A stretch of 64,000 nucleotides of DNA from positions 10,230,001-10,294,000 of the forward strand of contig NC_134028.1 in NCBI RefSeq assembly GCF_964204645.1. The letters run 5' to 3'. The position numbers were made by a program, and so were the translations under genes. This document shows, in pieces, positions 1 through 62,910 of this stretch; the first letter of the stretch is position 1, and each line of letters starts with the position of its first letter. The DNA is from Tubulanus polymorphus. Lineage: Eukaryota; Animalia; Nemertea. Under the pieces are notes generated by a model. That model was not told the origin of the DNA. It was given only the letters and a program-made list of their open reading frames with translations, and did no database searches.

Positions 1-160
1 ATTCTAGTTGTTAGTAGTTGAAACAAAAATCAACTAGATTTAACTAGAAATAAACAAAAACAACAATATTTCAACTAGCTTGTTAATCTAGTTGAATTCT
101 AGTTACATTCTAGTTAAATTCTAGTTGCAACATCACACAATTAATTTTTTTGTTATATAA

Positions 161-33673: not shown

Positions 33674-33766
33674 AGTAATTGGAAGATGTGGGTTTCAGAT
33701 CAGAGGGCGAGAGGGCGAAACACCACTCATCACCACAAGTAATTTTTTTCCCTAATAAATGGGGGA
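33674..33766 (+). repeat. Polinton left TIR (includes the PolB start codon)
   Basis: Reverse complement matches 53140-53219 and 2785-2874. Confidence 0.9.
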
Positions 33767-36700
33767 GAATGAACACCAACCAGAAAACAATAATGTTAAT
33801 AAAAATCAATATTATTGCCAATATTGTAAAAAATACATCGATACATCTCATAAAACACGACACGAAAAAACTGCAAATCATATAAAAAATGTAATAGATT
33901 TTGAAACTCCAGAAAATTCCAATGAAAGAAAAGAAAGATTAGAAAATATGAATGTGGATGAAATAAAATGTGAAGTTTGTAATGAATTTATAGTAAAAAG
34001 GAATTATAATAGACATCTCGAATCACAAAAACATTATAAAAATTTAAATAAAAATGTTTTAGGATCAGAATATTTTGATGATAAACCTCAACAAGTAAAA
34101 AAATCAACTTCAAAAACTAAATCCATTTCAAATAAACCTTACATGGAAAATGTTAGAAATTATATTGATTCACTAGAAATAAAAGATACAATTGAAATTT
34201 TAGAAACATACATAGTAAAATTGGTCCTGCAGCTATTATATTTAGATTTTTTAAAGGTACAAAAATAGAAGATTATAGTAAATTTAATGAAATAATAGAA
34301 AAAATACTAGATTTGATAACAGATGTTGAATATCCAAAAATTAGTATCTCTGGGAAAGTAAGTTTAATAAAGTCAGAAGAAAAAATGAATTATAATATTC
34401 AAACACACTCTGAAGAAATAATTTCAAAAACACAAATAAAAGAGAAGTTAGAAAGAATATTTAATGAATTTAAACGTCATATTGAAGAAAGGTATTTTGA
34501 GGGTTCTGGCTTAACATTGAATGAAATTATATATTTAGATTTAAATGTTTATAATACAAAAAGAAATAAAACATCAAAAAGTAATAAAATGTTTAAAAAT
34601 GATTCAAACTTTACAACAGAAAAGGATATTAAAGCATCATCTTATATTAAATTACCATTTACAACAAAAGCAATAATAAATATTCAAAATGAAGATAATA
34701 AATGTTTTCTATGGTCAACTATTAGTTGCTTACATCCAACACAGGAAAATGTTTGTAGAATAACAGATTATCGGAAATATGAAACATTATATAAAATTGA
34801 TCAATATCCAGTAACTATAAAAATGATACCCAAAATAGAAAAAATTAATAATTTAAAAATAAATGTATTCGAATTAATGCAATTACCAAAGACAAAAGTT
34901 GAAAATATTAAAGATTATACATTGGAAGCTTTATATTTAACAGAATATTATGATGATGAAAATGCTATAGATTTGTTATATTATAAAAAAGATAAAAATT
35001 AACATTATATGTGGTTAAAACAAATTGATTTATTCTTTAGAACAGAAAGTGATCATCATCGTAAAATTTATCTAGGTAGAAAATGTTTATCTAAATTTAT
35101 GACTGAGAATACATTATTAAAACATAAAGAATTATGTGATAATAAAGATTTTTGTAAATTAATAATGCCAACAGAAAAAGATTATAAATTGAAATTTACT
35201 AATCATAAATTTAAGAATATTGTTCCATTTGTAATTTATGGGGATTTTGAATCGATGAATAAAGAATTAACTGATCAAGATAGAAAAGAAATATATAACA
35301 AAAAGCAATTATTAAAATCAATGGATAAAGGAAATGAATTAAATGAAGACACAATACAAGACTCACCAATTATAAATACAATTAAAAAAGTTCATCAAAG
35401 AGCTGCTGCTTATGGAATTTATATAAAATCAAATTATCCTGAATTATATGAAAGTCAATATATTTCTTTTAGAGATGAAAATGTAGTTAATGATTTTTGT
35501 GATAAATTGATTGAATAAGAAAGTGATTTTGCAAAATTATTAAACAAAAATAAAAGAATAGTTATGACAAAAGAAGATGAAATTGATTTTAATTATGCAA
35601 CTCATTGTTGTTATTGTGAAAAACATTTTTATTCATTTGATAAAAGAGTTAGAGATCATGATCATTTGAATGGAAAGTTTAGAGGCGCCGCGCATGAAGA
35701 TTGTAATTTACAAGCTAACAAAGTAAATTTCGTTCCAATATTATTTCATAATTTATCAGGCTATGATACCCATCTATTTATAAAACAATTATCGGGAAAA
35801 TTGGGCGCAATTAATCAAGAAATAGAAGAATATAATGCTATGAATGAAGCAAATGTAAGAAAATATGATTTTAAACTATTAGCTAAAACATCTGAAAATT
35901 ATATTTCATTTCAATTTGGTTGCATTAGATTTTTAGATTCTTATAGATTTCTAGCAAGTTCATTAGATAATTTATCAAAAAGTTTAGTTGATAATGATTT
36001 TGTTATAACTCGATATTATTATCCAAATGAACAAGATTTTAGATTATTGAGATATAAAGGCGCAATTCCTTATTCATTTTATAAAACACACAATGATTTT
36101 AATGTAACAGAATTATTAAAAGATCAATTTTATGATCAATTAAAAGAGGAGTATGTGAAAGACGAAGTTTTTAATAGAACATTAAATATTTGGAACCATT
36201 TTAATATGAAAAATCATGGCGAATTAGTTGATTTATATTTAAAATCAGATGTTATGATATTGGCTGACATATTTGAAAAATTTAGAGAAGTTAATTTGAA
36301 TCATTTTAATGTTGATCCTTGTTATTGCTACTCTAGTCCTGGTTTAACCTGGCAATGTGGTTTAAAATATACAAATGTAGAATTAGATTTATTAAAAGAA
36401 CCAGATATGGTTTTATTATTTGAAAAATCAATTAGAGGTGGAATTAGTGGTGTTATGGAAGATAGATATTTTAAAGCAAATGATGAATATAAATTATTAT
36501 ATATTGACGCCAATAATTTATATGGTTGGGCAATGATGCAACCTCAACCATACGAAAATTTTATATTAACAGAAGTTGAAAGTGATGATAAAACTAATTG
36601 GGAAAGCGCAATTATGAGTTTGGAAGATGAAGCACCAATTGGTTATTTCTTTGTAGTTGATTTAGAATATCCTGAAAATATAAAGTTTAAAACAAGAAAC

Positions 36701-38814
36701 TTACCTTACTGCCCAGAACATTTAACTGTAGATGATAGTTATTTAAGTGAATACCAGAAGAAAATAAAACCGAAAGATCATGTTTTTACAGAAAAATTAA
36801 TACTTACTCAAAATAATAAACACAATTATATTGTTCATTATAGAATGTTAAAATTTTATCTAAAACAAGGAATGAAATTAAAGAAAGTACATAGATATAT
36901 TGAATTTAATCAATCGAAGTGGTTAGAAAAATATATAGATTTCAATACTCAACAGAGAACCATATCAAAAACAGATTTCGAAAAAGATTTTTTTAAAGTA
37001 ATGAACAATAGTTTTTATGGTAAAACATGTGAAAATATTAGAAATAGAAATGATATTGAATTAGTAAATAATTCTGAACGATTAAGACATTTACAATCAA
37101 GTCCTAGACATTTGGGAAATAAAAGATTTGAAGATTATTTAACAGCAGTTAAATTAAAAAGAACGTCAACGAAATTTAATAAACCTATATTCATTGGTTC
37201 AACTGTTTTAGAAGTATCAAAATTATTAATGTATGATTTTTATTATAATGTTTTACAACCACTTTTTGGGGAAAAGCAAATCAAAATATTATATTTTGAT
37301 TCTGTTACAGCTGACACCCCAATATTATTAAAATGTAATGATAAAATATTGATAAGAAGAATTTCAGAAATAATTCCACAACAAAATGAATGTTATATTT
37401 CACATGGTGAAAAAGAATTAATACAAATAAATGGATTAATGGATGTTTGGACAAGAAATGGATGGAAAAAATTAAAGAATATTATTAGACATAAAACAAA
37501 TAAGAAAATCTATAGAGTTAGAACTAAATTAGGATTTGTAGATGTTACAGAAGATCATAGTTTAATTAAACGAAATGGCGATGAAATAAAACCAACTGAT
37601 ATAAAAATTGGAGATGAATTATTACATAAAAGATTTTTCCAAAGAATGAATCATATGTCATTTGATGAAATAATTGATAATATTTATAATATAGAACCCG
37701 AAACATTAGAAGAAAAAGAATATTTTATCAAAGGATTTTTCATGGGAGATGGTTCAGCAGGTGTGTATAATTATGTTAATCGCACTCAACATTGCTGGTA
37801 TTTATGCAATCAAGATTTGAAATTATTAGAAAGAATAAAGAAATTCTGTGAAGAAGTTTATCCAAATAAAACATTTAAAATCATGGATGTTATGAAATCA
37901 ACAGCAGTTTATAGAATACTTGTAAATAATCCTAAAGATTTTGCTATAAAATATAATGATGAATTCTATATTCATGCAATAGTTAAAAGTAATACTTCAA
38001 CAAAAGAAAAGATAGTTCCAGATTATGTATTAAATGCAAAAAATAATTTAAGAAAATGGTTCTTCATTGGATTCTATGCTGCAGATGGTTCAAAAAGTTT
38101 CAAAAACCGCAAAACAATATCTTTAGCTCAAAAAGGAAAAGTTGCTATATCAGGATTGAATATATTATGCAGTTCATTAGGATTTAATATGAATATTGGA
38201 TTGATTAAATCTAAACCAAATTGCTTTAATTTAAGCCATGTAGAAAATGAGTTAACAGAAGAAGTTTAAGATTTATTTGAAATATATAACCCAACTGACT
38301 ATGTTTATGATTTATCAACAGATGATGGAACATTCAATTCTGGGTTCCCATTAATCCAAAAAAATACCGACGCCTACATACTAAAAATCAAGACAAATGA
38401 CATAACAAAAGATTTAAAAACATTAAAACATCATTTTGATTTTAGCAATTATCCCAAAGATCATGAACTATTTAGCAATGATAATAAAAAGATTCCTGGT
38501 AAATTTAAAGATGAATTAGGGGGTGATGAAATGATTGAATTTGTTGGGATAAGAAGTAAAATGTATAGTCATAGAACAAAAGATCATGAAGCTAAAAAGT
38601 TAAAAGGAATAACAAAACATGTGGTTGATAAACATTTCAAGATTATATAAAGTGTTTATATAAATCAATTTTAATGAAACATAAAATGAATTGTTTAAGA
38701 TCAGAAGATCACGAGATGTACATTAATGAAGTTGAAAAAACTAGTTTGAATCCATTTGATGATAAAAGGCATATTTTAGATGATGGTATAAAAACATTAC
38801 CTTATGGTTATTAA
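33759..38814 (+). pseudogene. polB: Protein-primed family B DNA polymerase with N-terminal zinc fingers, an endonuclease-VII-like insert and an intein
   Basis: YGDFES (ExoI), VRDHDHLNGKFRGAAH (EndoVII-like), FHNLSGYD (ExoII), YLKSDV (ExoIII), YIDANNLYG (motif A), KVMNNSFYGK (motif B), split YFD/TDA (motif C), PGKFKDE, KLKGI and TLPYGY*. In-frame stops at 35000, 35516 and 38267; frameshifts near 34230 and 38650. Confidence 0.96.
37301..38365 (+). mobile_element. Intein (355 codons) with LAGLIDADG homing endonuclease in PolB motif C
   Basis: Block A SVTADTPILLK; block B DVTEDHSL (TxxH); LAGLIDADG-like FIKGFFMGDGS and FFIGFYAADGS; block F YVYDLSTDDGTF; C-terminus LIQKN then Thr+1. Excision restores YFDTDA. 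One in-frame TAA at 38267. Confidence 0.95.
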
Positions 38815-40090
38815 AACATAAAATCAATATCATCATACTCGAAATCACTACTGGCTTCTTCATTTTCATTTAATTGTTCTTGTATAATTTGTTTAGGTTC
38901 TTCCATTTTATTTTTCTCATTTAAATAAAGTTCTATCTTGTACCACATTTCATCTCGCTCTCTTTGTTTCTTATTGTTTGTTAATTCGTAAAATGGAATT
39001 ATAATATCGATGTTCAAATAATTTACAATCTTATTTAAAAAGAATTCATAATTAATTGAATCTGTTATTCTATTTTCCAAATGATACATTAATATTTGTT
39101 TGAATATTTTTTTTACATTTTCCATATCTTTTTCTGTTAATTTAGGTTTTTCATAATAATCGTTAAATAATAAATATAAATACATTTTCTTTTGTTTTGT
39201 GTTAAATGTTGATGGAATAATTGTTTTTATAATATCTTTTTTAGTTATTTCACCATTTTTATTTTCTATTATTTTCATTTTTTCAAGCCATTGCATATAT
39301 TCTGGTGTATGATCTTCTATAGAAAATATTTTAAAAATTTCATCTAGATATCTAGATACCTAGATCCACATTCATTACAAAATAACACAGTACCTTCTTG
39401 TCTTAAGGTCGCATAACTACATTGTGGACATTTTCGTTTATAATTTATTGGTAATAGATCTTCATTAAGCTCTTGGTATTTTCTTACGTTTTCTTTATGT
39501 TTTATTGTTCTTTTATGTAGATTTGAATTACTTGTTGTAATAATCAATTTACAATATTTACAATAATATGTTTTTCTTGTTAATTCATTATATTGTTTTT
39601 CTAACTTTTCAACTGTTTCTTTATTATCTGGTTACGTTTTCTCATATTTTATTTTTTCTAATATATTATTTTTTCTTTCATTGAATTCAGTTTCAAATTT
39701 ATTAGAAATTTTATCTATATGTACTTTACGGAATTGATGATTCTCCCAATCTTCTATATTCTCGGGGCTATATTTTATTCGACAAGGCTCACAGAAATGA
39801 TCTTTTATACTATCCTTATCATAGAATAAGAAAGGTCTTTTCCAAATAATTTCAGGTTCAACTTAAACAGAATTACTATTACTTTCATTACTATCAACAT
39901 TAGCCGTTGCGCCATTAATTTTACACTTCTCTGAATGTTTTTTAACATAATTTCTTGAGAATAATTTATTACATTTTGGGCAGTTTAGTTTAGGGGGTTT
40001 ATAATTTTCATCATGTTTTTTCATATGTCTAGCCATATTACTTTTTCTTAGAAGTTCACCACAAATTTCACATGCTATCTTCTCATCCAT
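38811..40090 (-). pseudogene. Multi-zinc-finger protein fused to a VLTF3-like (poxvirus A2-like) late transcription factor domain
   Basis: ORFs 39863-40090 and 39344-39547 share one frame across in-frame stops (several CxxC/H fingers, then CPQC..CNECG). After a frameshift, 38811-39296 reads INYEFFLNKIVNYLN...ELTNNKKQRERDEMWYKI, resembling the VLTF3 C-terminal pattern. Confidence 0.72.
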
Positions 40091-40158
40091 TTATTAAGGA
40101 AAAATTTTATTAGAATTAATTTCTAGTGATGAGCGGTAATTTGTTTATGTTATAAATA

Positions 40159-40917
40159 ATGGTAGAATTAATAGAATACAATATATTTGTTGATTCTAGA
40201 AAACTTACAAATAATAAATCACATAATTTACTAGTTCAATTAGATAGAGAATTTAAGAATTGTGTTGATTCAAAATTAGTAAATATAAGTTTATGTAATT
40301 CTTTTTATAATATATCGGATAAAACTTTCGAACAAAGAGGTTTTGCAATTCATATGAGAAATAAAAATAAATGGTTTTATCTAATGTTAAAACCAAGATT
40401 ATATAATTTAGAAACATTAGCCCAAGAAATTAATCAGAAAGCACGATTAAAACTTGAAAGTGAAGATAAATTTTCAATTAGATTTATAAAAAGTGATAGT
40501 TCTGATAAAATTAATATAAATTTAGATGATGAAAGCAAACATGCATTTATGGTAAGGAAACCTTTAGCTAAACTGTTAGGAATTAAACCACAAACTGTTA
40601 CAGGAAACGTAGACGGTAATTCAAATATAATACATTTTACACATTTTTATATGTATTGTAATTTAATTGATCCTACAAAAACATTCGAAGCAACTAAAGA
40701 TATAACTTGTAATTCTGGTTTACTAAACATTTTACCATTGAAGAATGTTAAACAATTTGGAACGCAAATAAATTATAATTTAGCTGAATGTGATTTTAAA
40801 CCTTGCATTCCACATTTCAATAATCTTAAATTAGAAATTAGAAATCATAATGGTTATTTAATTGATTTGAATAATTTTCCTGTGATATATGAATTAGTTA
40901 TAAGATTTAGAGAGTAA
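40159..40917 (+). CDS. Minor capsid protein (penton)
   Basis: Intact 252 aa with IFVDS, SFYNI, YMYCNLI, LLNILP and LKLEIRNHNGYLIDL..VIYELVIRF, the pattern of Polinton pentons. Confidence 0.8.
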   Translation: MVELIEYNIFVDSRKLTNNKSHNLLVQLDREFKNCVDSKLVNISLCNSFYNISDKTFEQRGFAIHMRNKNKWFYLMLKPRLYNLETLAQEINQKARLKLESEDKFSIRFIKSDSSDKININLDDESKHAFMVRKPLAKLLGIKPQTVTGNVDGNSNIIHFTHFYMYCNLIDPTKTFEATKDITCNSGLLNILPLKNVKQFGTQINYNLAECDFKPCIPHFNNLKLEIRNHNGYLIDLNNFPVIYELVIRFRE

Positions 40918-40933
40918 TTTTTTCATTATATAA

Positions 40934-41287
40934 ATGAATATAACTGTTGGACCGAGTATATGTTTTGGATTTGATTTTAAACGTGAGAAAGAAATGAAAT
41001 TTAACATTAATGATGTAATTACACAAATCAAAAATATTGCATTTTCTAATGAAACAACATTTAAGTATGAAAAAACAATAGATAAAGAAACTTTTAATGT
41101 AGAAAAGATAACTAATTTAATTAGAGAATCTTTAAGATTTTATGAATTAGATGAAGATTTTATCATCGATGATATTAAAAAAATAATAATTGAAATATAT
41201 ACAAATAAAACTAGTAATGAAATAAATGTTGAATTAATCATATATAAGATAACTAAATATTTTGAAGATAGTAATTTTTTTGATTAA
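40934..41287 (+). CDS. Polinton hypothetical protein
   Basis: 117-aa ORF with TATAAATG start; homologous remnant at 63553-63810. Confidence 0.7.
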   Translation: MNITVGPSICFGFDFKREKEMKFNINDVITQIKNIAFSNETTFKYEKTIDKETFNVEKITNLIRESLRFYELDEDFIIDDIKKIIIEIYTNKTSNEINVELIIYKITKYFEDSNFFD

Positions 41288-41290
41288 TAA

Positions 41291-41512
41291 ATGAGTGATA
41301 ATAAGTGGATAATAACTGGATGATATAATGATGCCTTACTATCAGTTGGAACTGTTGGTTATTCAATGGTATTAAAAAAAGGATTTAAAATGGGAAGTGT
41401 TAATGTTGATAGATTTGATATCAATGATATCTTAAAATTAACATTAGCAGTTACTTTATCTAATTTAACTATTGATTATTTGGAAAAACAAAAATATATT
41501 CCTCCCATATAA
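41291..41512 (+). pseudogene. Small hydrophobic Polinton protein (73 aa, one TGA), absent from the ORF track
   Basis: TAAATG start; MSDNKWIITG*YNDALLSVGTVGYSMVLKK...KLTLAVTLSNLTIDYLEKQKYIPPI; conserved at 63361-63551. Confidence 0.7.
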
Positions 41513-41536
41513 ATGCATAATTATTTTACTAAATAA

Positions 41537-41959
41537 ATGGCTTCTGCAGTTATAACGATTATAGGATCGGCAATTGTAAACGCTTTAGCATTTACTGGTG
41601 GTGGTTATTTATTTAAACATATTGATAAAAATGGTTCATTAACAGAACAAGAAAGACATAACTTAGCATTAGAGAAATACAATAAAGCAGCAGAAGAATA
41701 CAGAGAAAAGAGGCAAAACTATATGGATTATATTAACAAGGAATTATATGATCAGAAGATTTCACATAGAGATTTTCAATCAGTTGATGATGCAATGAGT
41801 TTATATAACGCAGTAAGCAATAAAGAAAAATTACATCTACATAAACCTAAATTATCAGATTATTATACCCCGAGTAAAGAACAACAGAAATATGAAATAA
41901 TGTGGATTTTAGGTGGAACAGTTGTTGTTATATTTGTAGCATATAAATTTACTAATTAG
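41537..41959 (+). CDS. Polinton membrane protein (hydrophobic N-terminus, coiled coil, C-terminal TM)
   Basis: 140-aa ORF, also intact in copy 3 (62911-63336). Confidence 0.82.
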   Translation: MASAVITIIGSAIVNALAFTGGGYLFKHIDKNGSLTEQERHNLALEKYNKAAEEYREKRQNYMDYINKELYDQKISHRDFQSVDDAMSLYNAVSNKEKLHLHKPKLSDYYTPSKEQQKYEIMWILGGTVVVIFVAYKFTN

Positions 41960-41978
41960 TAATTTTTTTTCTAAATAA

Positions 41979-42413
41979 ATGGAAGATAAAGTTGATAGTA
42001 TTGATATTATTCCTCATGATATAAATAAAACTAAATTAAAAATATATTTCGAAAAACAAATATTAGAATTCGAAAATGATTTAAAAGTTAAAAAGAAAAA
42101 ATATTTAAAAAGTAAAATTATATATTATTTGATTATTAGTGGTTCGGTTACAATTAGTTCTGTAATAACATTTCTAGCAATATTCAGTCCATTAACACCT
42201 TTAGCTATATCAATTGGTGTATTAGGATTAAGTTCAAGTGTTTTAACTGGTATAAGTTCAAAATTAAATATAAAAAGTAATAAAGAAAAAATTAAAACTA
42301 ATATAAAAGAAATTAATAAATTAAAAAATACACTAGATTACATTATAAGTTTAAATGGTCATATAACAGTTGAAGAACAAGATAAATTATTAAAAGAATT
42401 AATAAATTATTAA
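41979..42413 (+). CDS. Polinton two-TM membrane protein
   Basis: 144 aa with two adjacent hydrophobic helices; homolog at 62550-62894. Confidence 0.8.
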   Translation: MEDKVDSIDIIPHDINKTKLKIYFEKQILEFENDLKVKKKKYLKSKIIYYLIISGSVTISSVITFLAIFSPLTPLAISIGVLGLSSSVLTGISSKLNIKSNKEKIKTNIKEINKLKNTLDYIISLNGHITVEEQDKLLKELINY

Positions 42414-42429
42414 TTTTTTAATTATATAA

Positions 42430-45400
42430 ATGGCAGATAGTTTTCCAAAAGCTTTCCAATATAATAAATCAACTAAATATAATATTCCTGCAATAGATTT
42501 TAATAAAGATATTACATATAGAAATGAAGTTTTAAATTCATTAATTGATTTATATATTTATGTTACTGAAAGTAATAATTTTCATGTAAAGATGGAAAAT
42601 ATATTTCATGTGTATACAATGGTTATTAAAATCTAATATGAAGTATTGGCAGAACCAATTAAATTTTGCTGTTTATGGCGCAACAACAGGATGTGGAATT
42701 AGTTGGAATGGTCATTTAAACAAACCAAGTTTACCATTGATGTTATCACTTTTTAGATTTCATACATATTTTCAAATAAAATTAATATTAGATGAATTAG
42801 AATGTCCTTTACCAGGTTCAAAATATTTTAAAGAATTGAATAATAATATTAATTCTTCTAAGTTTTATAAAATATGTAATGAATTTAATATTAATTCAAA
42901 TAAAGATTTTAGAGCAAAAATTGGAACAATGGGTGGATTAGGAATATTATATACTAAAGAATTTGGAAAAATAATGACAAATTCAGATATAAGAACACTA
43001 AATTGGAATGAATTACCAAAATATTATAATAATATACAACAACAAAACAATAATGGTTGGGTTAATTTCATTTTAGAAAATAGTGAAGTTTTTACTAAAG
43101 CTGGAATACAAAGAATAAATCAATCTATTAGAACTTATTTAATTTGTATTTTAGGTGCGCAAGTGAAAGGCTGAATCCAAGAACATGTCTATCTCACTTT
43201 TGAGCCCAAACGTCTACTTTTACTTAGTAGCCACTTGAGAACAATAAGCAATTAACGATATCAGCTACTTTTCCAGTAGTATACATTTCAAAACAGTCAC
43301 TCTGGAATAGTATTCCTTTCAATTCGGTTGGTTTTCTATAGTGGCTGTTTCGAAGAGTCTACTATTGAAAAGTGACCATTTTGAAACATCTGGTTTCGAT
43401 AGTGCACACTAGCAGTAGAGGTGACTGTAAAACCACCCGCCTGTTAACAGTGACTTTGTGATAGTAACTCCTACCATAGCAGCTACTCTCAAAACACATC
43501 GTTTCTAAAAGTCAACTATTGAAAAGTGACCATTTTGAGATCGCTTGCCAGATTCCCTGTTATAAATACACTGTAGCAACATATGCTTCAGATTTGCAGT
43601 GATACGTGACAATATAAACATACTGAGAAACTCTACTCACGCTATAGTTTGGGGTATAGTTCTATTAAAGAGTGACTCAGTTGAGATCTGAAGATATTGT
43701 AGATACTATCTTTCAGGATGTGAAATGTAATGAGCGATTCCCAACTCTCAATTGGATTTAAATTTGTTTACAAATTGTCAATAGTTATGTAGTTTTAAGA
43801 TAAATCAAAATTTCCTTCTTTTCATGGCGATGTAATTGAATAAAGAATTCAATTTGAACAAATGCAGCTATTTTCAAGCATAGGTCTGCATTTCTTTTTG
43901 ATTTAAATTCTTAGATTAAAAGCGCAAAAATTCAGGTTAACCTCTCATTATTGAAATGGTGGTTTATCTTCAACGGGGGCCTGGATGTCTTTGCATCTTA
44001 AATTAAGATGTTCATTTTGGAGTGTTTGAATTTCCCTGAATTCTAATTTTGCGAAATCATTGATTTTTTTCAAACAAAATATGCTATACCCATGTGGATT
44101 TTTAACATTCTAAAGAAATCATCTAAATTGTGCCCATATTTGATCGAATTTAATAGAAGAAACTGTATGGTATTCAAGATTTCATTTGGATTACGGTAAC
44201 GGCCTTTGGTGATCGTCCCTGGGGTCATGAATGAAGAAATCCCGTAATAAAATTTTAAATATGATAAAATTTGTTAAGGTGAAACCGCAACGTTTTGACT
44301 GTAGACTAACAGCCATCATCAGGGGGAATGTAGACATTCTAGTGATAAGGGCTTTTAGTAAGATGGCTGTCAGACAACAGCTGAAACGTTGTGGTTTAAC
44401 TATAATAAATTTCATGATACAAAATTCTATTGTGAAATTTCTTCATTTGTCTACAGTTAACACGCTTTAGAGTATTTTATTCAACTTCTTCGGGTCCTGT
44501 AGCCGTTTAGATCGAGAATTATTTACTAATCGGCAAAGAAGGGATATAAAACCGTGTTGGTCGCTATGAGAGGGATTCTCTGTATATCTGCACCTTAAAC
44601 CGGTACCTTTGTTAGTTCTAGCCCACATTCGCTTCCAAATTCAAGTATTGGTAACGTTGGTTTACGATAATTTGAGAAAAAGAGTTTAGTTGGAGAAAAC
44701 TGATAATTCAGTTAATGAGTTAACTGATAATCTTATAATTCAGCGATCATTGGTTCATCGATTCAGCGAAGTTCAAACACCGTACATTTTGGCATGTTAT
44801 TGTATTGGCACCTTGAAATAAAGTTTCATAGAGATATTGCGGTGCTAAGTTTATCAATATTAAGAGGTAATTACTTTTGGTTTGTGGTCTTTTGGTGGCA
44901 AATGCAGTTTGTTCATTCGTTCATCAATCACTGTCTAGTTAGCCAGTGTAATTGACCTGCTGACCGATAGCTGCTGCTGAGTTTTTGATAACCTATATAA
45001 ACAATTTACTCAACAAAGTGGGAAAGTATGTGAAACTAGATTTACAGCATATTGCATTTCTTTCACATCTTAAGCCAAAAGAAGTTTTCTCTATCAAATG
45101 AAATTGCTGACTTCAAAATTACGTGAACATCTCAACACTGCACTTTTATACGCTAATCGTTTGATCTTTTATAATAAGTTGGTAATTTCATTTCAACCAA
45201 ACTGTATAACTACGAAATAAGATTTTGATTATGGTATCATTTCTAGCAAGCGATAAAATGATTCAATATTCATTAACGAACAAGCAGAGAACAGCGTGAC
45301 AAAGTGAACATCACATGGATTATTCAAAAATCGTTTGTATCGAAATAAACAATTAATTCAAGGTTAATTCTAAGTATTTTAGATACATTTTTTTTCGTAA

Positions 45401-46776
45401 TTCAATTTTTGAACATATGATTTTATTTGTATATTCCTCTCTCATATACCCTTAAAAACAAATTAAGCCTAAAAGACAAATTTATTTTTTTGTCTTATCT
45501 TTCTTTTCTACAAAATCAAAGATTTATGAACGCACCAGAATGTTTTATAATCGCAAATGTAAAGAATTCTAGGACTGGCACTATATTTTAGTATTAATGG
45601 ATTTAATCCATGATGATGTTATATGAATGAATAGTTTTCCATTTTGTTGAGCGTAATATAATTTAGGGGATTCTTAGCATCTCAAAAACTTTGATTTTCT
45701 GTTCACAGAACTGTATTCAAAGCATACAGAGTTCTGTACACAAAGCATATAGGGTTTAACAGTACCTTTAAACCTGTCACGTATCACTGCAAACCTTTAA
45801 CAGATGCTGCTATTTTGAACAGGAAATAACCATGCCATCTCAAAATGGTCACTTTTCAATAGTTGACTTTTAGAAACGATGTGTTTTGAGAGTAGCTGCT
45901 ATGGTAGGAGTTACTATCACTAAGTCACTGTTAACAGGCGAGTGGTTTTACAGTCACCTCTACTGCTAGTGTGCACTGTCGAAACCAGATGTTTCAAAAT
46001 GGTCACTTTTCAATAGTAGACTCTTAGAAACAGCCACTATAGAAAACCAACTAAATTGAAAAGAATACTATTTCAGAGTGACTGTTTTGAAATGTATACT
46101 ACTGGAAAAGTAGCTGATATCGTTAATTGCTTATTGTTCTCAAGTGGCTACTAAGTAAAAGTAGACGTTTGGGCTCAAAAGTGAGATAGACATGTTCTTG
46201 GATTCAGCCTTTCAAGTTGAAACAAGATCCCCAATAATTGGAAATGATAACACTTCATTCGATGCGCAGAAACAATTCAAAGTATTATTTGAAGATTCAA
46301 TTCATAATGATAAAAATAGATCGATTCCAGAAAACATTGTAAGATATCAAAATTATTTAGATAAATCACATATTAGATTAAATTATTGTATAGTCCCTAA
46401 TCTATTAATTATTTCTAATGGTTTAGTATTAAAGATGGGAAACATAATTGGTTATAATAATCTAATTAAAACTGCACCAATAAATAATTCATTTGGATTA
46501 AATGATATAAATAAAAAGATTATCACTGCTCCAAAATTAATGGAAGGTGAAAAAAATAAAAAACATATTCAATCAACAGAAACTAAAACTAAGAATATTA
46601 AATTAAATAATGATTCTAAAATAAAAGATTACAATACTACAGAAAATATTAAAACTGATAATATTCAACATGATATAATTAAAACTGATAATGATAATAA
46701 ATTCCATGAAAATACTAAATTAGCTTTAACTTGTATAGGAATTGTTATAGGAGGAATATTATATTTAAAATTTTAA
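42430..46776 (+). pseudogene. Conserved Polinton protein (~430 aa, C-terminal TM) split by a transposon
   Basis: 42430-43164 joined to 46218-46776 reconstructs the copy-3 gene 61155-62444 (ILGAQV|ETRSPII). Confidence 0.88.
43165..46213. mobile_element. Non-autonomous DNA transposon, 3049 bp, ~370-450-bp TIRs, 4-bp TSD (possibly Sola-like)
   Basis: Termini GAAAGGCTGAATCC / GGATTCAGCCTTTC; TSD AAGT (43161-43164 / 46214-46217), confirmed by the empty site in copy 3; no transposase ORF. Confidence 0.9.
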
Positions 46777-46792
46777 TTTTTTTATTATATAA

Positions 46793-47546
46793 ATGGATGT
46801 AGAAGGTGGAGAAGATATTGGAATCCAATTGAAAAACTTTTACCGAATGGATTAATTGATGCAACAGATCAAGAATTAGAAGATTTAGATATATTTTCTG
46901 ATAAAGCAATTAGAGAAATTGAAAGTATAAGACATGCATCTGATAAAATTGCGCATGATAAAAGTATAAGAGATTTTAAAATTAGAACTTTAGAAAAAGA
47001 ATTAACTGATAAAAATAAAGAAATAGAACAATTCAAGTCTGATTTAGATCATATGATTATAATATTAATAGATTAAAAGTTATTTTTAAAGATTTATTGA
47101 TAAAACCAAATTCTGAAATATCGTTAAAAGATAGAATAAAGTTATTATTTAAATTAGAAGGAATAACAATTCTTTCAATTCTAACAGCTGTTACTATGTT
47201 ATTTACAACAATTGGTTTAGCAATATCAAATTCTTTGAAATCTTCTCCTATTCCCAATAAACCGGATAAACCCCCGAATGATAATAATTCTATACAAGAT
47301 AAAGTTAAAGATGGGTTAAAGAAATTAGCAAAATATTTATGGGAACTATCTAAAAAATCTGCTGCAGCTTTACCAGGAATTATTGCATCAATTGTTGGTT
47401 TTATATTGAAATCTGCAGGTAATATTCTTAACTTTGCTGCTGAACATATTATTTTATTTTTAATTACAGTTGTAAGTGCTATTATTTTTGGGTTAGTGAA
47501 TATGATATCAAAAAGATATCAAGAAAAAATAATAAAAAATAAATAA
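46793..47546 (+). pseudogene. Polinton coiled-coil, multi-TM protein, internally deleted in this copy
   Basis: TAAATG start MDVEGGEDIG joins directly to sequence found ~600 bp further into the copy-3 gene; C-terminal hydrophobic helices in ORF 47097-47546. Confidence 0.8.
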
Positions 47547-47566
47547 TTAATTTTTTTGTTAAATAA

Positions 47567-48827
47567 ATTAGTGGGAGTTATATAAGTCCTTCTAAGATTT
47601 CTAGAATATCTAATGCTATTAAAGCAGAAAGATCACATCATATAATTACACATAATCCTTCAAATATTAATCCCGATGAAACTTTATATGTAAGAATTCC
47701 TAGATTAACACAAAATACTTTTTATGTTCCAAATAGTATTTATTTATCAGCTGATATAAAGATATAAAAGTAATTGGTCATGATAATAATTATGTTGTTG
47801 ATAATGTTGGGAGATATTTGATTAAAAAATTAACTATAAAGAAAGATTGGTCCAGAAACAGTTTTCTCATTCGATGATTATAATTTATTTATGCATCATA
47901 AAGATTTATGGTTAACTAAAGGAAATAGAAATAATATGATATTTCAGGGTATTCAATCGGAAAACCATAATAAATTAAGATCTGAAGCCAATAATGGAGT
48001 AGTAACTAGTGCCGCAGATAATTTGATAAAAAAGATTTATGGAAGCAAATATAAAATTCCATTAGACTTTGAATTGATAAATAATAATGCACCTTTATAT
48101 AAATATGTAATTCAAGAACATATTATATTTGAGATAACATTTGCTCCTGTAAATGAAATTGTATTATCTTGCGTTGTTAAAGATATGGGTTATAAATTAT
48201 CAAATATATGTTTAGAATATGACACAGTAACTAATGAAAATATTGCTAGCACAATTCAAACTCAATACAATCAAGGATTTTCATTATTATATGATTATAT
48301 TGATAAATTTAAAACTGTAACTATTAATGCAAATGATGAAATAATTAATGAGAATATTAACTTCCCAAGAAGATCTATTAAAGGTATATTAATATTTTTT
48401 ACCATTGCAACATATTCTAATGGTGCAATAAAGGTAGATAATTATTATAATCCTGAAATAACAAAAGTAGAAATAACTATCGAAGGAATAGCAAATAAAA
48501 TATTTTGTCAAGGAATGAGAATGATAGATCAATGGCCAGAAATTAGAAAACATTTTATGAATGAAAAAAGTAAAATCATTTGAAAATTGTAATATTAATC
48601 AAATTGATTATTATACCGGCAATAAATATGCATTATGGTTAGATTTTAGAACAACAGAGGATAATTCATTACATGGTTCTGGGAAAAAACTACAGAACAC
48701 TAAGGATGGAATACAATTATTCATGAAAAAGAAAAAAAGAAGCTTAAATTTTAAAATGCATATTTATATTATATCTGACGCACAATTAAATATTGTAAAT
48801 TCACAATTAGATAGTATTCAATATTAG
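47567..48827 (+). pseudogene. Major capsid protein (double jelly-roll), start codon mutated and frameshifted
   Basis: Homolog of the 415-codon copy-3 gene; size, beta-rich character and position before integrase and ATPase fit an MCP. Confidence 0.75.
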
Positions 48828-48857
48828 AAATATAAAGTTAAAATTAACGATGTATAA

Positions 48858-49985
48858 ATGGGTGGTAAAAAAACTCCTAATACTAAAGAACAATATTTAA
48901 GAAATTTATATTACAACCCTGAGAGTTCGGTTGCTTATTCTTCTACCAAAAATATATGGCGTCAAGTAAAACAAGATAAATTAGATAAGATAATCCCACA
49001 AAATTTAGTTAAATATAAAGATATAAATGAATTTATGTTAGAACAACCAACATACACAACACATAAAAAAATTGTTAGAAAATATAAAACTCGTAAAACT
49101 ATGGTAAGTTATGTAGATCAACAGTGGCAAGGAGATTTAATTGATATGAAAAATGTTAAGAAAGATAATAATGATTATTGGTGGTTATTGAATATAATTG
49201 ATATTTTTAGTCGTTATGTATGGAGTTTCCCACTTTATAGAAAAGATGCTGTACAAACATCAAATGTTTTAAGAAAATTTCTTTCGGATGATAAACTAAA
49301 ACCAGAAAAAATACAATTTGATGACGGAAAAGAGTTTGATAATTCACTTGTTCATGAACTCTTAGATAATCATAATATTAAATATTTTTCAACAAAATCG
49401 GATAAGAAAGCAGCAGTTGTTGAACGATTTAATAGAACATTAAGAACAAGAATGTGGAAATATTTTACAGCAAATAATACTTTTAAATGGATTGATGTTT
49501 TAGCAAAATTGATAGAAGGATATAATAATTCTTATCATTCTTCTATTGGAATGAAACCTATTGATGCTAGAAAACCTGAAAATGCTGAAATTGTTTGGAA
49601 TAATTTATATGGAGCATTTCTTGTAGGTGATTTTGGTGAACCTAAATTTAAAGTTGGTCAAAATGTTAGAATTTCTAAGTATAAAAAGATATTTGACAAG
49701 GGATACGATATAAATTTTACTACAGAAATATATAAAATAAAAAAGGTAATAACAACAAAACCATATGTCTATAAATTAGAAGATTTAGATGGTGAAGAAG
49801 TTGATGGCTACTTTTACGAAGAAGAATTAAGTTTAACTACAGAAAATCTAGAACAAGAATATAAAATTGAAAAAGTATTAAAAACAAAAACTATAAATAG
49901 AAAAAAATATTCTTTAGTAAAATGGGTTGGATGACCAGATAAATTCAATGAATGGATATTGTCAAGTAAAATTAAAAATATATAA
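48858..49985 (+). pseudogene. Retroviral-type (rve) integrase with C-terminal chromodomain; TGA at 49932 truncates the chromodomain
   Basis: WQGDLIDM, IDIFSRY, IQFDDGKEF, VVERFNRTL, YHSSIGMKP and YKIEKVLK...LVKWVG. Confidence 0.95.
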
Positions 49986-50594
49986 ATGAATAAGGAATTA
50001 TTTATATTTGAACCTCATAATATGTTAATTTCTGGCGTAACAAATTGTGGAAAAACTTATTTTATATTAAATTTATTAGAAACTGTTTATGAAAACTATT
50101 TTGATAATATAGTATTATTTTGTCCAACATATGAATTTAATCAAACTTATGATAGAAATATTACTAGAAATAATAAATTTATTATATTAGATCCTAAAAC
50201 AGTAAAAGAAAATTTAGATAATTGTATAAAAATAGCAATTGATATTTATAAAGGATCAAATACATTATTTATCATAGATGATTGCGCAAATTTACATGAT
50301 TCAAACGTTAGAGAAAGTGAGTTATGCTATTTAGCTTTTTCTGGCAGATATTTTGGGATAACAACTTGGGTTTTAAATCAAAAATATAATTCAATTGTTA
50401 ATGACTTTAGAGAAAACATTAGATTTCTAGTTTTATTCTACAATAAAGATAGAAAATCGATGAAAAATGCGCTTGAAGAAAATGATATTATTCCGCATGA
50501 TTTACATAATGAATATATGGATAAGTTGAAAAATATTAAAAGATCAAAATTACTATTTAGATTACAACACCCATTTAAATATGAATTTATTTAA
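49986..50594 (+). CDS. A32/FtsK-like genome packaging ATPase
   Basis: Walker A GVTNCGKT, Walker B FIIDDC, and the GR.FGIT..LNQ motif. Confidence 0.92.
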   Translation: MNKELFIFEPHNMLISGVTNCGKTYFILNLLETVYENYFDNIVLFCPTYEFNQTYDRNITRNNKFIILDPKTVKENLDNCIKIAIDIYKGSNTLFIIDDCANLHDSNVRESELCYLAFSGRYFGITTWVLNQKYNSIVNDFRENIRFLVLFYNKDRKSMKNALEENDIIPHDLHNEYMDKLKNIKRSKLLFRLQHPFKYEFI

Positions 50595-50595
50595 A

Positions 50596-50870
50596 TTCAA
50601 CTAGCTTGTTAATCTATTACATATTTAGTTACATTCTAGTTGAATTCTAGTTATTAGTAGTTGGAACAAAAATCAACTAGATTTGACAATATTTTAACTA
50701 GCTTGTTAATCTAGTATATTTTTAGTTACATTCTAGTTGAATTCTAGTTATTACTAGTTGGAACAAAAATCAACTAGATTTAACAAGAAATAAATAAAAA
50801 CAGCAATATTTCAACTAGCTTGTTAATCTAGTTGAATTCTAGTTGCATTCTAGTTGAATTCTAGTTGCAA
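50596..50870. repeat. CTAG-rich short-period direct and inverted repeat block
   Basis: Repeated ~11-bp ctagttgaatt / ctagttacatt units with inverted aactag units; also at 1-130 and 55280-55463. Confidence 0.9.
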
Positions 50871-50898
50871 CAACACAACTAATTTATTTGTTATATAC

Positions 50899-51504
50899 AT
50901 GGGAGGTGAAAAGAAAATAAAATCTAAAAATGGTGATGTTCCAATTGAAAAAACTTTAGATGATTGAGGAATAACAGAAACAAAATTAACTCCAGATGAT
51001 GGTGCTTTAAATAATGTTACAACAAATAATAATTATGAATATTATCTTTATTGTAAACATCAATTAGAAATATTAATAGCATCTGGAAAATGGAAAAATT
51101 TTGTCGGTAAAAATTTAACTTATAATGAATTAGATACAATGAAATCAGAAGAAATTATTGGATTATTTAAGATTTATGGAGCCGCGAGAACAGCTAGAAT
51201 TAATGACGCGATATCAGAAAATGTAGTAAAAGGTTATAGTAAATTATGTAATTATATACTACCAATTGAAGATGAAAATAGATTATATTCCGATTTAAAA
51301 AATGATTATTTAGTTATGACTGAATTAAATAAATGGATTGGATATTTATCATTTCAATTAGGTGGATTTATGACATTATTATCAACTGGAGTTATAATAT
51401 TTTCAAATATTGAAAGTAAAAATATTTCTATAATAAATGAACAAGGTGGAAGAAGTGAAGGAATTAACTGTGAAGAAAAAACCGAGATCACAGAAACAAA
51501 TTGA
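50899..51504 (+). pseudogene. Conserved Polinton ~200-aa protein with an in-frame TGA near 50965
   Basis: Matches the intact ORF 54667-55257. Confidence 0.85.
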
Positions 51505-51803
51505 ATGGTCTCGGCAATTAGGAATTAAATCACAAGAATATGAAAAAGCTGTAAAAGAAAAAATAAGTAATAAAAATGTTAATAAAAATAGTGAAAATAT
51601 TGTTATTTCTACTCCTTCTAATGATAGAATATTTGATAAATGTCTATATTTTACGGTTGGATTTGTAATTGTATTCATTTTGATTGGTTGTAATTGGTAT
51701 AAGAAATCAAATAAGTTCATTATATTAATAATTCTGAAACAACTGCTATCAAAAATGAAAATACTTCTGAAATTCCAAAATTGATAATAAAAAAAATGGA
51801 TTA
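51437..51803 (+). pseudogene. Small TM protein, frameshifted near the C-terminus
   Basis: Homolog of 699-1055. Confidence 0.75.
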
Positions 51804-52819
51804 ATATTTTAGAAAAAAAACAAAAAAATAAATGAATATCTCACTACTTTTGTCTATCTATGCGAAGCAATTAAATTGTCCAGATAAGCCATTTCGGATT
51901 CTAGATATTCATTATATTTATTAATTTATCTTGTTTTTTTAATTTGAAGATTTTACTTGAATATTGTATTACAGTCGTTTCTTATTATTAGTTTTTTCTT
52001 AAATTGAAAGATGACAGCACTGGGTGTGATGCTAAAATGAATATTTGAATTTGAATTTGAATTTGTTAATCAATTGACATGGTAATTGATTACTAATTTG
52101 ATTTAAAATTATATCATAATTAAGTTAAAAATTCATAATTCATTTATCAGTTTTCATTCCTATATTCTTTTATTCGGAATAATTTATAATTTCAAATTTC
52201 ACATATTTCTTTAGTAAACACCAACAACATTTACTTAGGTGTTTTAGCTAAGTATATAAGGCAATTCATTCCAACGCTGGAGTAGCTCTGGCCAGCAGAG
52301 GCATTTTGAAAATGCACCTTCGTCCACTCTCCGGGTTTCTCCTTCGGTTTCGAATTTCGAGATTGGTAGAAATTACATTAGGCGCCTTTAATATAATGTG
52401 ATTTCTGCCAATCATTGAAGGAGATCCCGGTTGACGTGGGTCGCGGGGGTGTAAGTAGAAATGACGGGGGAAAAGCGTCCCGTGGCGACTTTCAATAATG
52501 GGATGCTTATCCCCTGAAAACTCTGTAGGTCGAGGATAGGGCAATTTTGCTAAAACTTACCTTAAAAACACCGAAATATTCCTTTTAATCACGAGAGAGA
52601 ATGTATCCTGTGTGTGTTGTATGTACTGCGTGCTTATTATATAACTGCTAGCTATCCAACATAACAACAACGTTGAATTGCAACACCTGTTTGATCGATC
52701 AATATTCAAATGAAGCACTCTCTTATAATAACATGTAACAGATGTTTGACTGGTATGATTGTAGTTGTTCGTAAAACGACTAAGGTCATTTTTAGATATT
52801 CATTATTTTTATTTTTTAT

Positions 52820-53145
52820 TTAATCAACAATTTCTAAATCATGATGACCGTCTTCATTTTTCTCATGATAGATTATTTTAAATCCTTCTAAATCTTTTAA
52901 TTCCTCTGTACTCAATGAAACCCATTTATCAGGTAAAAACACTTTAAATTCTCGCGATGTACTAACATTACAGTAGCTTAAATTCGCTGATACTTTCTCT
53001 CCATATTTAGTTTTTATCTTTTCTAATTTCAATATTTTATGTTCAATTTCTTTTGTAACATCAATTAACTTTTTTATTTCAAATTGTTTTTTGCTGGTTT
53101 TATTCTGTTATTTATTGTTGCTAAGAATGCTTTTCTATCTCCCAT
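52820..53145 (-). pseudogene. Terminal 108-aa protein, frameshifted
   Basis: Homolog of 2119-2445; ATG at 53145 lies within the right TIR. Confidence 0.8.
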
Positions 53146-53219
53146 TTATTAGGAAAAAAAATTACTTGTGGTAATGAGTGTTGTCTCGACCTCTCGACCT
53201 CTGATCTTTTCCAATTACT
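53140..53219 (-). repeat. Polinton right TIR
   Basis: Reverse complement of 33674-33766, with a short deletion near the tip. Confidence 0.9.
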
Positions 53220-53549: not shown

Positions 53550-54338
53550 TTATCTACTATCAGCAGTTATTTTCTTGTGTTTTAGCAGTGGCAAAAAGAA
53601 GTCTAAAATTCTTAAAATATCAGATGTTTCAACGAAGGTGGCTTTTTGGGGCCTGATACCTATCCCCAAGCATTTCTACTTACACCCCTGTGACCCACAC
53701 CTCACCAATTCTCCTTCAATGGTTGACAGGAAACACATTTAATTAAAGGCGCCTAATGCATTTCCTATCAACCCCTTACCCCCGAAAGGAGGATCGAAAG
53801 TCGAAACTGAAGGAGAACCACGGAGGATGGACAAAGGTGCATTTTCGAAATACCCCTGCAAGCCAAGCCCGGCGGCACTCCAGTGGTCGAATGAATTGCC
53901 TTATATACTTAGCTAAAACACCTTAGTAAATGTTGTTGGTGTTTACTAAAGAAATATGTGAAATTTGAAATTATAAATTATTCTGAATGAAAAGAATATA
54001 GGAATGAAAACTGATGAATGAATTAAGGATTTTTAACTTAATTATGATATAATTTTTAATCAAATTAGTAATCAATTACCATGTTAATTGATTAACAAAT
54101 TCAAATTCAATTACTCATTTTAGCATCACACCCAGTGCTGCCATCTTTCAATTTAAGAAAAAACTAATAATAAGAAACTACTGTAATACAATATTCAAGT
54201 AAAAACTTCAAATTAAAAAACAAAATGAATTAATAAAAATAATGAATATCTAGAATCCGAAATGACTTATCTGGACAATTTAATTGCACCGCATAGATAG
54301 ACGAAAGTAGTGAGATATTCAATTAATTTTAAAAAAAT

Positions 54339-54719
54339 TTATTTTTTTTGCTTTTTTTCTAAAATATTAATCCATTTTTTTATTGTAAATTTTGGAATTT
54401 CAGAAGTATTTTCATTTTTGATAGCAGTTGTTTCAGAATTATAAATATCGTGAATTTTATTTGATTTCTTATACCAATTACACCCAATCAAAATGAATAC
54501 AATTACAAATCCAACCGTAAAATGTAGACATTTATCAAATATTCTATCATTAGAAGGAGTAGAAATAACAATTTTTTCACTATTTTTATTAACATTTTTA
54601 TTACTTATTTTTTCTTTTACAGCTTTTTCATATTCTTGTGATTTAATTCCTAATTGCCGAGACCATTCAATTTGTTTCTGTGATCTCGGTTTTTTCTTCA
54701 CTTCTTCCACCTTGTTCAT
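54339..54719 (-). CDS. Small TM protein (copy 3)
   Basis: Homolog of 699-1055; altered C-terminus. Confidence 0.72.
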   Translation of the reverse strand: MNKVEEVKKKPRSQKQIEWSRQLGIKSQEYEKAVKEKISNKNVNKNSEKIVISTPSNDRIFDKCLHFTVGFVIVFILIGCNWYKKSNKIHDIYNSETTAIKNENTSEIPKFTIKKWINILEKKQKK

Positions 54720-55257
54720 TTATTATAGAAATATTTTTACTTTCAATATTTGAAAATGTTATAACTTCAGTTGATAATAATGTCATAAATCCACCTAATC
54801 GAAATGATAAATATCCAATCCATTTATTTAATTCAGTCATAACTAAATAATCATTTTTCAAATCAGCATATAATCTATTTTCATCTTGAATTGGCAGCAT
54901 ATAATTACATAATTTACTATAACCTTTTACTACATTTTCTGATATCGCGTCATTAATTCTAGCTGTTCTCGCGGTTTCATAAATCTTAAATAATCTAATA
55001 ATTTCATCTGATTTCATTGTATCTAATTCATTATAAGTTAAATTTTTACCAATAAAATTTTTACATTTTCCAGATGCTATTAATATTTCTAATTGATGTT
55101 TACAATAAAGATAATATTCATAATTATTATTTGTTGTAACATTATTTAAAGCACCATCATCTGGAATTAATTTTGTTTCTATTATTTCTAAATCATCTAA
55201 AGTTTTTTCAATTGGAACATCACCATTTTTAGATTTTATTTTATTTTCACCTACCAT
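54667..55257 (-). CDS. Conserved Polinton 196-aa protein, intact
   Basis: TATAAATG start; open frame; homologs in copies 1 and 2. Confidence 0.85.
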   Translation of the reverse strand: MVGENKIKSKNGDVPIEKTLDDLEIIETKLIPDDGALNNVTTNNNYEYYLYCKHQLEILIASGKCKNFIGKNLTYNELDTMKSDEIIRLFKIYETARTARINDAISENVVKGYSKLCNYMLPIQDENRLYADLKNDYLVMTELNKWIGYLSFRLGGFMTLLSTEVITFSNIESKNISIINEQGGRSEEKTEITETN

Positions 55258-55464
55258 TTATATAACAAACAAATTAGTTGTGTTGTTGTAACTAGAATTC
55301 AACTAGAATGTAACTAGAATTCAATTAGATTAACAAGCTAGTTGAAATATTGTTGTTTTTATTTATTTCTAGTTGAATCTAGTTGATTTTTGTTCCAACT
55401 ACTAATAACTAGAATTCAACTAGAATGTAACTAAAAATATACTAGATTAACAAGCTAGTTGAAT

Positions 55465-56073
55465 TTAAATAAATTCATATTTAAATGGGTGTTGTAATCT
55501 AAATAGTTATTTTGATCTTTTAATATTTTTCAATTTATCCATATATTCATTTTGTAAATCATGTGGAATAATATCATTTTCTTCAAGCGCATTTTTCATC
55601 GATTTTCTATCTTTATTATAAAATAAAACTAGAAATCTTATATTCTCCCTAAAGTCTTTAACAATTGAATTATATTTTTGATTTAAAACCCATGTTGTTA
55701 TCCCAAAATGTCTACCAGAAAAAGCTAAATAACATAACTCACTCTCTCTAATTTTTGAATCATGTTAATTTGCACAATCATCTATAATGAATAATGTATT
55801 TGATCCTTTATAAATATCTATTGCTATTTTAATACAATTATCTAAATTTTCTTTTACTGTTTTAGGATCTAATATAATGAATTTATTATTTCTAGTAATA
55901 TTTCTATCATAAGTTTGATTAAATTCATATGTTGGACAAAATAATACTATATTATCAAAATAGTTTTTATAAACAGTTTCTAATAAATTTAATATAAAAT
56001 AAGTTTTTCCACAATTTGTTACGCCAGAAATTAACATATTATGAGGCTCAAATATAAATAATTCCTTATTCAT
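55465..56073 (-). pseudogene. Packaging ATPase (copy 3), in-frame stop at 55765
   Basis: GVTNCGKT and FIIDDC; TTA>TAA change relative to copy 2. Confidence 0.9.
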
Positions 56074-57201: not shown

Positions 57202-57231
57202 TTTTATATCCTTAATTTTAACTTTATATTT

Positions 57232-58479: not shown

Positions 58480-58499
58480 TTATTTAACAAAAAAATTAA

Positions 58500-61138: not shown

Positions 61139-61154
61139 TTATATAATAAAAAAA

Positions 61155-62444: not shown

Positions 62445-62549
62445 TTATATGATAAAAAAATTAATAATTTATTAATTCTTTTAATAATTTATCTTGTTCT
62501 TCAACTGTTATATGACCATTTAAACTTATTATATAATCTAGTGTATTTT

Positions 62550-62894: not shown

Positions 62895-62910
62895 TAATTG
62901 AGAAAAAAAA

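Follow-up and report, generated by a model that had tools for sequence, protein, structure and literature searches.

The stretch of DNA analysed here (the window) comprises 64,000 nucleotides (nt) of the nemertean Tubulanus polymorphus (contig NC_134028.1, positions 10,230,001 to 10,294,000). Between positions 33674 and 53219, it contains one decayed, integrated polinton-like provirus, most of whose gene starts match the late promoter of poxviruses. The element is bounded by terminal inverted repeats (TIRs) of ca. 95 nt that begin AGTAATTGGAA at both ends and are 90% identical over 70 nt (blastn). After subtraction of a nested 3.04-kb transposon, its net size is 16,505 nt, and its G+C content (GC) is 24%, compared to 37% in the flank. 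The gene set comprises a protein-primed PolB (pPolB), a zinc-finger/VLTF3-like gene on the opposite strand, a likely minor capsid gene, six small unknowns, the major capsid gene, an rve integrase, an A32 ATPase, and three more open reading frames (ORFs). The pPolB, VLTF3-like, major capsid and integrase genes are damaged, as are others. Core genes could be aligned to intronless homologues without gaps of intron size. A preliminary description of this locus had posited a very AT-rich element of ca. 16.5 kb with intronless core genes, and all of these properties were confirmed. The features are as follows.

33674..33769, + strand: left TIR, containing the first TAAATG start (33759)
33759..38811, + strand: pPolB gene, broken (Pfam DNA_pol_B_2, E 3e-20; tblastn with P0122 over 34625-38805)
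37301..38365, + strand: pol-c intein with LAGLIDADG endonuclease in polymerase motif C, in-frame stop at 38267
38811..40090, - strand: zinc-finger/VLTF3-like gene, single, broken (colinear with P0290 and P0291), TAAATG start at 40090
40159..40917, + strand: likely minor capsid gene, start TAAATAATG, without Pfam match
40934..47546, + strand: cluster of small and medium-sized unknown genes, starts at 40934, 41291, 41537, 41979, 42430 and 46793, all TAAATG, spacers of 3-24 nt
43169..46209, no strand: nested host DNA transposon, 3.04 kb, 470-nt inverted repeats (92%), splitting the gene that starts at 42430
47567..48827, + strand: major capsid gene, broken (fold of homologue P0002)
48858..49985, + strand: rve integrase with C-terminal extension (Pfam rve, E 2e-10), in-frame stop at 49932
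49986..50594, + strand: A32-like packaging ATPase (Pfam Pox_A32, E 7e-12)
50596..50867, no strand: non-coding tandem repeats rich in CTAG palindromes, present in all three copies between the ATPase and the next gene
50899..51784, + strand: two conserved unknown genes, starts at 50899 (broken) and 51437
52255..52560, + strand: structured, GC-richer non-coding segment (predicted fold)
52823..53145, - strand: small broken right-end gene, TAAATG start inside the right repeat, homologue in L003
53135..53219, - strand: right TIR
53663..63811, - strand: second copy, partial, inverted, ca. 90-95% identical, with its own insertions
1..2874, + strand: third copy, consisting of the right arm and, after it, a left-end fragment in inverted orientation

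The hand-curated gene starts of the window read TAAATG in 12 of 15 cases, against a background of 6.6% of ATGs, and two of the three remaining starts are TAAATG in sister copies. In the second copy, 7 of 9 starts have the motif; the start at 62893 does not. Because the window list had been curated partly by the motif, the fair test was furnished by the relatives, which were scored by the first ATG of ORFs of at least 150 amino acids. TAAATG was found at 36 of 47 such ATGs in close relatives (18 loci; background 5.7%), at 1 of 179 in a sister clade (62 loci), and at 35 of 260 in an AT-rich viral control (37 loci). The motif persisted at 36-44% GC (L005-L007, 7 of 9 ORFs). A quick capsid tree with 45 rows of relatives placed all 14 rows bearing TAAATG within one group of 19 (support 94), and the motif was present in 14 of the 15 rows of that group that have DNA.

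The surrounding bases are also constrained. A T at -12 preceded 46 of 49 TAAATG starts (17 gene families), against 32 of 95 internal occurrences of TAAATG; for the window alone, the counts were 9 of 11 against 10 of 32. An A at -18 was present at 11 of 11 window starts and at 78% of those in relatives. The overall form is A(-18)..T(-12)..WAWA-TAAATG, located before nearly every gene of the clade. The preliminary description had noted TAAATG on almost all genes, and the result is stronger than that claim: the upstream bases are fixed and the pattern is clade-wide. At -3, a T occupied 38 of 47 starts in the close clade, whereas the sister clade keeps the Kozak purine at 138 of 179; a T in place of this purine is expected if the mRNA begins after that T.

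According to a review (PMC11980589), late promoters of vaccinia consist of TAAAT, mostly continued by a G and so overlapping the start codon, and of a conserved T located ten bases upstream. The upstream T of the element lies within one base of that position, depending on the counting (9 bases before the T of the motif, 10 before its first A), and the fixed A at -18 is additional. For vaccinia and the yeast pGKL plasmids, initiation of transcription within AAA, accompanied by slippage, is documented (PMC6211774). The pGKL initiator, TAAAN, is similar; unlike those plasmids, the element does not encode an RNA polymerase. Pfam scans of the element detected none, in agreement with the preliminary description, although its absence is uninformative because all polintons lack one.

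The pPolB gene is interrupted by an intein of 355 codons, inserted at YFD|S...KN|TD and carrying one in-frame stop. This is the pol-c site described for Mimivirus (PMC549080); Mimivirus and archaeal pol-c inteins have the same YxD|TD motif C site, with Ser first, Asn last, and Thr next, while that of the element resides in the protein-primed polymerase of an integrating element. Of its Pfam matches, LAGLIDADG_3 (28.6 bits) exceeded the cut-off, and Intein_splicing (E 8e-5) fell below it. Among the best 120 of 187 homologues, the top four were located in other protein-primed polymerases (46-50% identity), followed by RNA-primed PolBs, and 17 of 37 viral loci were named contigs of giant-virus metagenome-assembled genomes. 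The same pol-c intein is carried by P0122 and P0124, which are multi-copy polinton polymerases as well (with 136 and 121 cluster members, respectively). In the P0122 cluster (n = 14), seven sequences were intein-occupied, three empty and four unscored; in the P0124 cluster (n = 4), three were occupied and one was empty. The pol-c intein is genuine and mobile; occupied and empty alleles coexist in two clusters. No intein-skipping read joint was present among the joints listed. Motif C was intein-free in the three sister-clade polymerases seen.

A quick tree of 71 inteins joined the four pPolB rows with a support of only 72, beside three long branches, and the nearest non-pPolB rows by path were from giant viruses. 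Identity to giant-virus inteins was 36-40%, and that to a T4-like phage intein was 39%. A single entry into polinton polymerases, from a giant-virus-type pool, is likely, with homing among polintons thereafter. The intein thus shows that there was past contact with a large-virus pool, but neither poxvirus contact nor present dependence. The polymerase of L081 is pol-delta-like, with vaccinia far down its list of matches. Earlier work on polinton pPolBs described homing-endonuclease inserts and interpreted them as intein invasions (PMC11071308, and PMC10748475 for an HNH insert). The same intein family was observed in type II topoisomerases (P0169, P0172, P0174, P0178, P0179, P0199, P0219 and P0239, among those listed) and in P0140, a protein with PF03747.

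The fragments between 40090 and 38811 make up a single gene whose product combines several zinc fingers and a zinc ribbon with a VLTF3-like helical domain. The last fragment matched Pfam Pox_VLTF3 at 25.3 bits against a cut-off of 25, a borderline score, with CxxC..CxxC upstream. Only three relatives were found among 1.84 billion proteins, and none of the three matched Pox_VLTF3 at E<=0.01. A four-sequence profile found nothing in 240 loci, and no real PDB match was obtained for the protein. The single-sequence model (predicted local distance difference test score, pLDDT, of 43.5) was too poor, and the fold search with it was meaningless. The gene was not found in 13 long sister-clade loci. 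VLTF3 has already been reported in polintons (PMC11131425, PMC8502044), and mriyaviruses, which are presumed to be nuclear, retain VLTF3 although they lack an RNA polymerase (PMC11253617).

The intein, the VLTF3-like gene and the TAAATG starts had been advanced in the preliminary description as three independent signals of nucleocytoplasmic large DNA viruses. They do not amount to three independent pointers to one helper, since the non-polinton relatives of the intein are in giant-virus and T4-like phage PolBs and VLTF3 is known from polintons and from presumably nuclear viruses without RNA polymerase. The intein and the VLTF3-like gene are both weaker signals than was claimed there.

The major capsid protein has no Pfam match. 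Its homologue P0002, which is 78% identical to the capsid of the second copy, was modelled from 110 sequences (pLDDT 91) as a double jelly roll. This fold matched giant-virus and iridovirus capsids with TM scores of 0.64-0.68 and that of mavirus with 0.54-0.56. An adenovirus-type maturation protease was not found by Pfam in 21 ORFs, 64 of 77 six-frame fragments and 23 sister-clade ORFs, a search that a badly broken gene could escape. Mavirus (Virophaviricetes) resembles the element in having a pPolB and an rve integrase and in integrating, and its late promoter is shared with its helper. The element differs in that no protease was found, its capsid fold is closer to giant viruses, and its motif is different; on the protease and the capsid, it is not a member of the virophage class.

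All three copies in the window are broken or partial, and neither a free genome nor a transcript of the element was found. In DNA run X6, bins in the left half of the element had ca. 15-85x the depth of the lowest flank bin, and 367 reads exited the left end of the element into dissimilar flanks. These observations imply a dispersed family of dozens of copies. Runs X1 and X2 covered non-coding flank as DNA would, and their summed contig depths cannot reveal amplification. The window copy differs from nearly all reads at many sites, a pattern as in neutral decay. The ratio of nonsynonymous to synonymous substitution rates (dN/dS) between two copies was 0.07-0.48 in four genes including the capsid gene (five were tried; orf41979 was misaligned and dropped), from which it follows that virion genes were under selection until recently.

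Given the poxvirus-late-type motif, borrowing of the transcription machinery of a larger co-infecting virus is likely. The interpretation adopted here, with a confidence somewhat above even, is that the element is a decayed integrating polinton-like virus and that a large DNA virus infecting the same cell, not host RNA polymerase II (Pol II), transcribed it with its post-replicative machinery. Ten + strand genes are separated by 0-30 nt, which leaves no space for separate Pol II promoters. AATAAA was not depleted in the coding strands of the window (59 observed, 59.4 expected; observed/expected ratio, O/E, of 0.99). Depletion of TTTTTNT, the pox early terminator, was discarded as a measure, as all A and T runs are depleted in coding strands too. 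A precedent is provided by polinton-like viruses (PLVs) in the occlusion bodies of entomopoxviruses (PMC11296320). The motif points to a pox-like helper; the helper may instead belong to those Megaviricetes that have TA(n)ATG starts.

Under this scheme, a particle would enter a helper-infected cell, where the helper polymerase would start within AAA at each motif and slip, giving every gene of the tightly packed row its own mRNA with a short poly(A) head. Replication of the linear genome would proceed from its ends by means of the pPolB, and A32 would package it. The rve integrase would insert copies into host chromosomes, where they would decay. More speculatively, the VLTF3-like protein may tune the late complex of the helper toward the promoters of the element. 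A broader proposal is offered tentatively and is, on balance, doubtful: a broad clade, so far undescribed, of polinton-like viruses that integrate into the germ line of invertebrates may have given up host Pol II for the late transcription system of a poxvirus-like helper, carrying a giant-virus-type intein and a structured RNA of its own, in which case the promoter would predict undiscovered pox-like viruses.

Several observations weigh against helper transcription. Four of the 18 close loci (L014-L016 and L018) have no TAAATG (0 of 10 ORFs), and the loci are related, so that the counts are not independent. A T at -3 was also frequent in the AT-rich viral control (102 of 260). In close relatives, AATAAA was somewhat depleted (O/E 0.83, z -3.7), as nuclear expression predicts. 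The non-polinton relatives of the intein are in pol-delta-like giant-virus and T4-like phage PolBs, not in those of poxviruses, and the intein-bearing pPolB P0259 is equally close to the sister clade and to the element. The three relatives of the VLTF3-like protein include no recognisable giant-virus VLTF3, and the gene is weak evidence as a pointer to a helper. The dozens of chromosomal copies need nuclear access. Finally, a motif-pattern scan of viral contigs yielded no helper among the 120 matches listed. Overall, the interpretation given in the preliminary description is supported in part.

Among the candidates rejected as helpers, the best contig of the motif scan, which looks Megaviricetes-like, had 5 of 8 starts at first, a count that fell to 6 of 24 over 20 kb. 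L141, L239 and L240 are large-virus contigs with TA(n)ATG starts, but with TAAATG at 6 of 24 and 2 of 17. Many genes of L239 and L240 (which encode Rab, an HMG box and TspO) start TA(n)ATG, so TAAA-type starts are not confined to poxviruses, a further point against a specifically pox-like source.

The best-surviving alternative, a fairly unlikely one, is an autonomous nuclear virus whose own VLTF3-like zinc-finger protein directs Pol II to TAAATG, producing near-leaderless mRNAs with no helper. The mriyaviruses (PMC11253617) are in line with such a life cycle, as are the mild AATAAA depletion in relatives and the polymerase, capsid and integrase that the element itself encodes. The VLTF3-like gene was found only with contigs in the size class of this clade, which also suits this account. 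However, the VLTF3-like gene and the polymerase share the motif, so nothing would be expressed first, and no VLTF2 or other VLTF3 partner was found in Pfam scans of the element. Moreover, Pol II mRNAs with a 2-nt leader are poorly translated in animals.

It is improbable that the motif is a relic of a helper-dependent ancestor, the family now being a germ-line transposon expressed by read-through host transcription and the motif merely recent. The many dispersed insertions and the broken state of every copy seen would be expected of such a family; retention of the motif across capsids only 50-60% identical and across 20-44% GC, together with the dN/dS values, argues otherwise. Slim chances are also given to the idea, compatible with helper transcription and put forward in the preliminary description, that the host keeps endogenous copies as an inducible antiviral reservoir, as with mavirus in Cafeteria. 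That idea draws on analogy and on high copy number; it went unsupported, as the window copies are broken and nested with host transposons in a transposon-dense region, the window copy has diverged from the reads as in neutral decay, and no helper or transcript was found. That TAAATG is a by-product of AT richness, of stop-start overlap or of a splice acceptor is highly improbable despite the low GC of the element and an integrase/ATPase junction that overlaps as TAA-ATG, for the background is 5-7%, the motif holds at 44% GC with the T at -12 in a fixed position, the TAA of the motif supplies the upstream stop at only 1 of 46 starts, and no G occurs at -4 to -6 in 46 starts, which rules out an AG acceptor.

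Relative to Maverick-Polinton group 1 (Polintoviricetes), the element shares a pPolB, rve, a double-jelly-roll capsid, an A32 ATPase and TIRs; it differs in that no adenovirus-type protease was found and in that no 5-6 bp target-site duplication was present at the window copy, where the six flanking bases differ between left and right. These mismatched flanks may reflect later rearrangement. Animal polintons and PLVs outside the two Maverick groups include octocoral, hydrozoan and bivalve elements near Aquintoviricetes (10.64898/2026.06.19.733378). They and the coral polintoviruses, in some of which VLTF3 is reported (PMC11131425), have the same five features in common with the element. Of the Aquintoviricetes-related PLV module, the element has the capsid and the ATPase; no protease was found, and the minor capsid label is without a profile match. 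Entomopoxvirus-associated PLVs are likewise small animal polinton-like viruses proposed to parasitise a poxvirus (PMC11296320). Unlike the element, those four viruses encode an adenovirus-type protease and, where this is stated, they are without rve; the available text of that source mentions neither promoter nor TAAAT and thus holds no promoter analysis.

Polintons, VLTF3-bearing polintons, animal PLVs near Aquintoviricetes and poxvirus-associated PLVs are already known (10.64898/2026.06.19.733378, PMC11296320). In the literature searched, neither a poxvirus-type promoter for any polinton clade nor a pol-c intein for any pPolB had been reported, a result on which subscription papers, Repbase and supplements may bear. 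How animal polintons are expressed, and whether any need a helper, is an open question in the field. In the present case, two sister clades that share one capsid family are cleanly split by start context, Kozak versus poxvirus-late-type, and start context could serve as a sequence-only marker of helper dependence applicable to all polintons. If the helper interpretation is true, integrated virophage-like parasites extend to animals, and an as yet unseen large DNA virus is predicted for these hosts. The presence of an intact-type and polymorphic pol-c intein within protein-primed polymerases also documents that inteins have been exchanged by large viruses and polintons.

The sister clade (L019-L080), besides its Kozak starts, is GC-richer than the element, and its capsid gene is preceded by an upstream motif of the clade's own (a T-run, AAATTAGAAAA and TATTATAC). 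Several genes of the 40934..47546 cluster are also present there. A close relative, L003, carries a deoxynucleoside kinase gene (10343-10981, - strand) with a TAAATG start; its single viral-contig match (37%) is in a giant-virus-like contig.

No usable locus came out of viral-contig scans in which the capsid, its alignment, the VLTF3-like protein or the ATPase served as query. In the clam Mactra antiquata, the capsid has a homologue of 38% identity; together with the host transposons of the window, this homologue suggests an animal host. Another capsid, P0046 (54% identical, with eight further named cluster members), is filed under Bartonella assemblies on contigs of <2 kb; it is probably contamination from an arthropod vector and would then extend the clade to land arthropods. 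Capsid and VLTF3-like homologues occur on contigs of equal size (P0289/P0294, 16,883 nt; P0025/P0292, 12,994 nt), and each pair probably lies on the same contig; 16.9 kb is about one element length.

The gene at 40159..40917 is presumed to encode the minor capsid protein on account of its motifs, position and length; no profile confirmed this label. The nested transposon at 43169..46209 is missing from the second copy. The CTAG repeats are a possible origin or packaging signal. The segment at 52255-52560 folds on the + strand with z -7.85 (0 of 100 shuffles were as good), compared to -4.56 on the - strand, into a predicted long, G.U-rich rod and a hairpin. It had no Rfam or tRNA match and was not found in the loci of relatives. 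It recurs in all three copies (52255-52560, +; 1505-1830, +; 53652-53909, -), among which 8 of 73 pairs had changed on both sides, thin evidence given three related copies. The segment is a candidate viral RNA, RNA-processing signal or 3'-end signal between converging genes.

The terminus of the third copy (2445-2874) consists of a right end without the outer repeat, a short insert and the inverted left-end fragment, such that two terminal promoters lie on the same strand. The region around the element is transposon-dense. A host piggyBac-type transposase is located at 3734-5496 and a 408-bp tandem array at 25912-28366, and positions 20155-25948 are taken to be a CR1-like long interspersed nuclear element.

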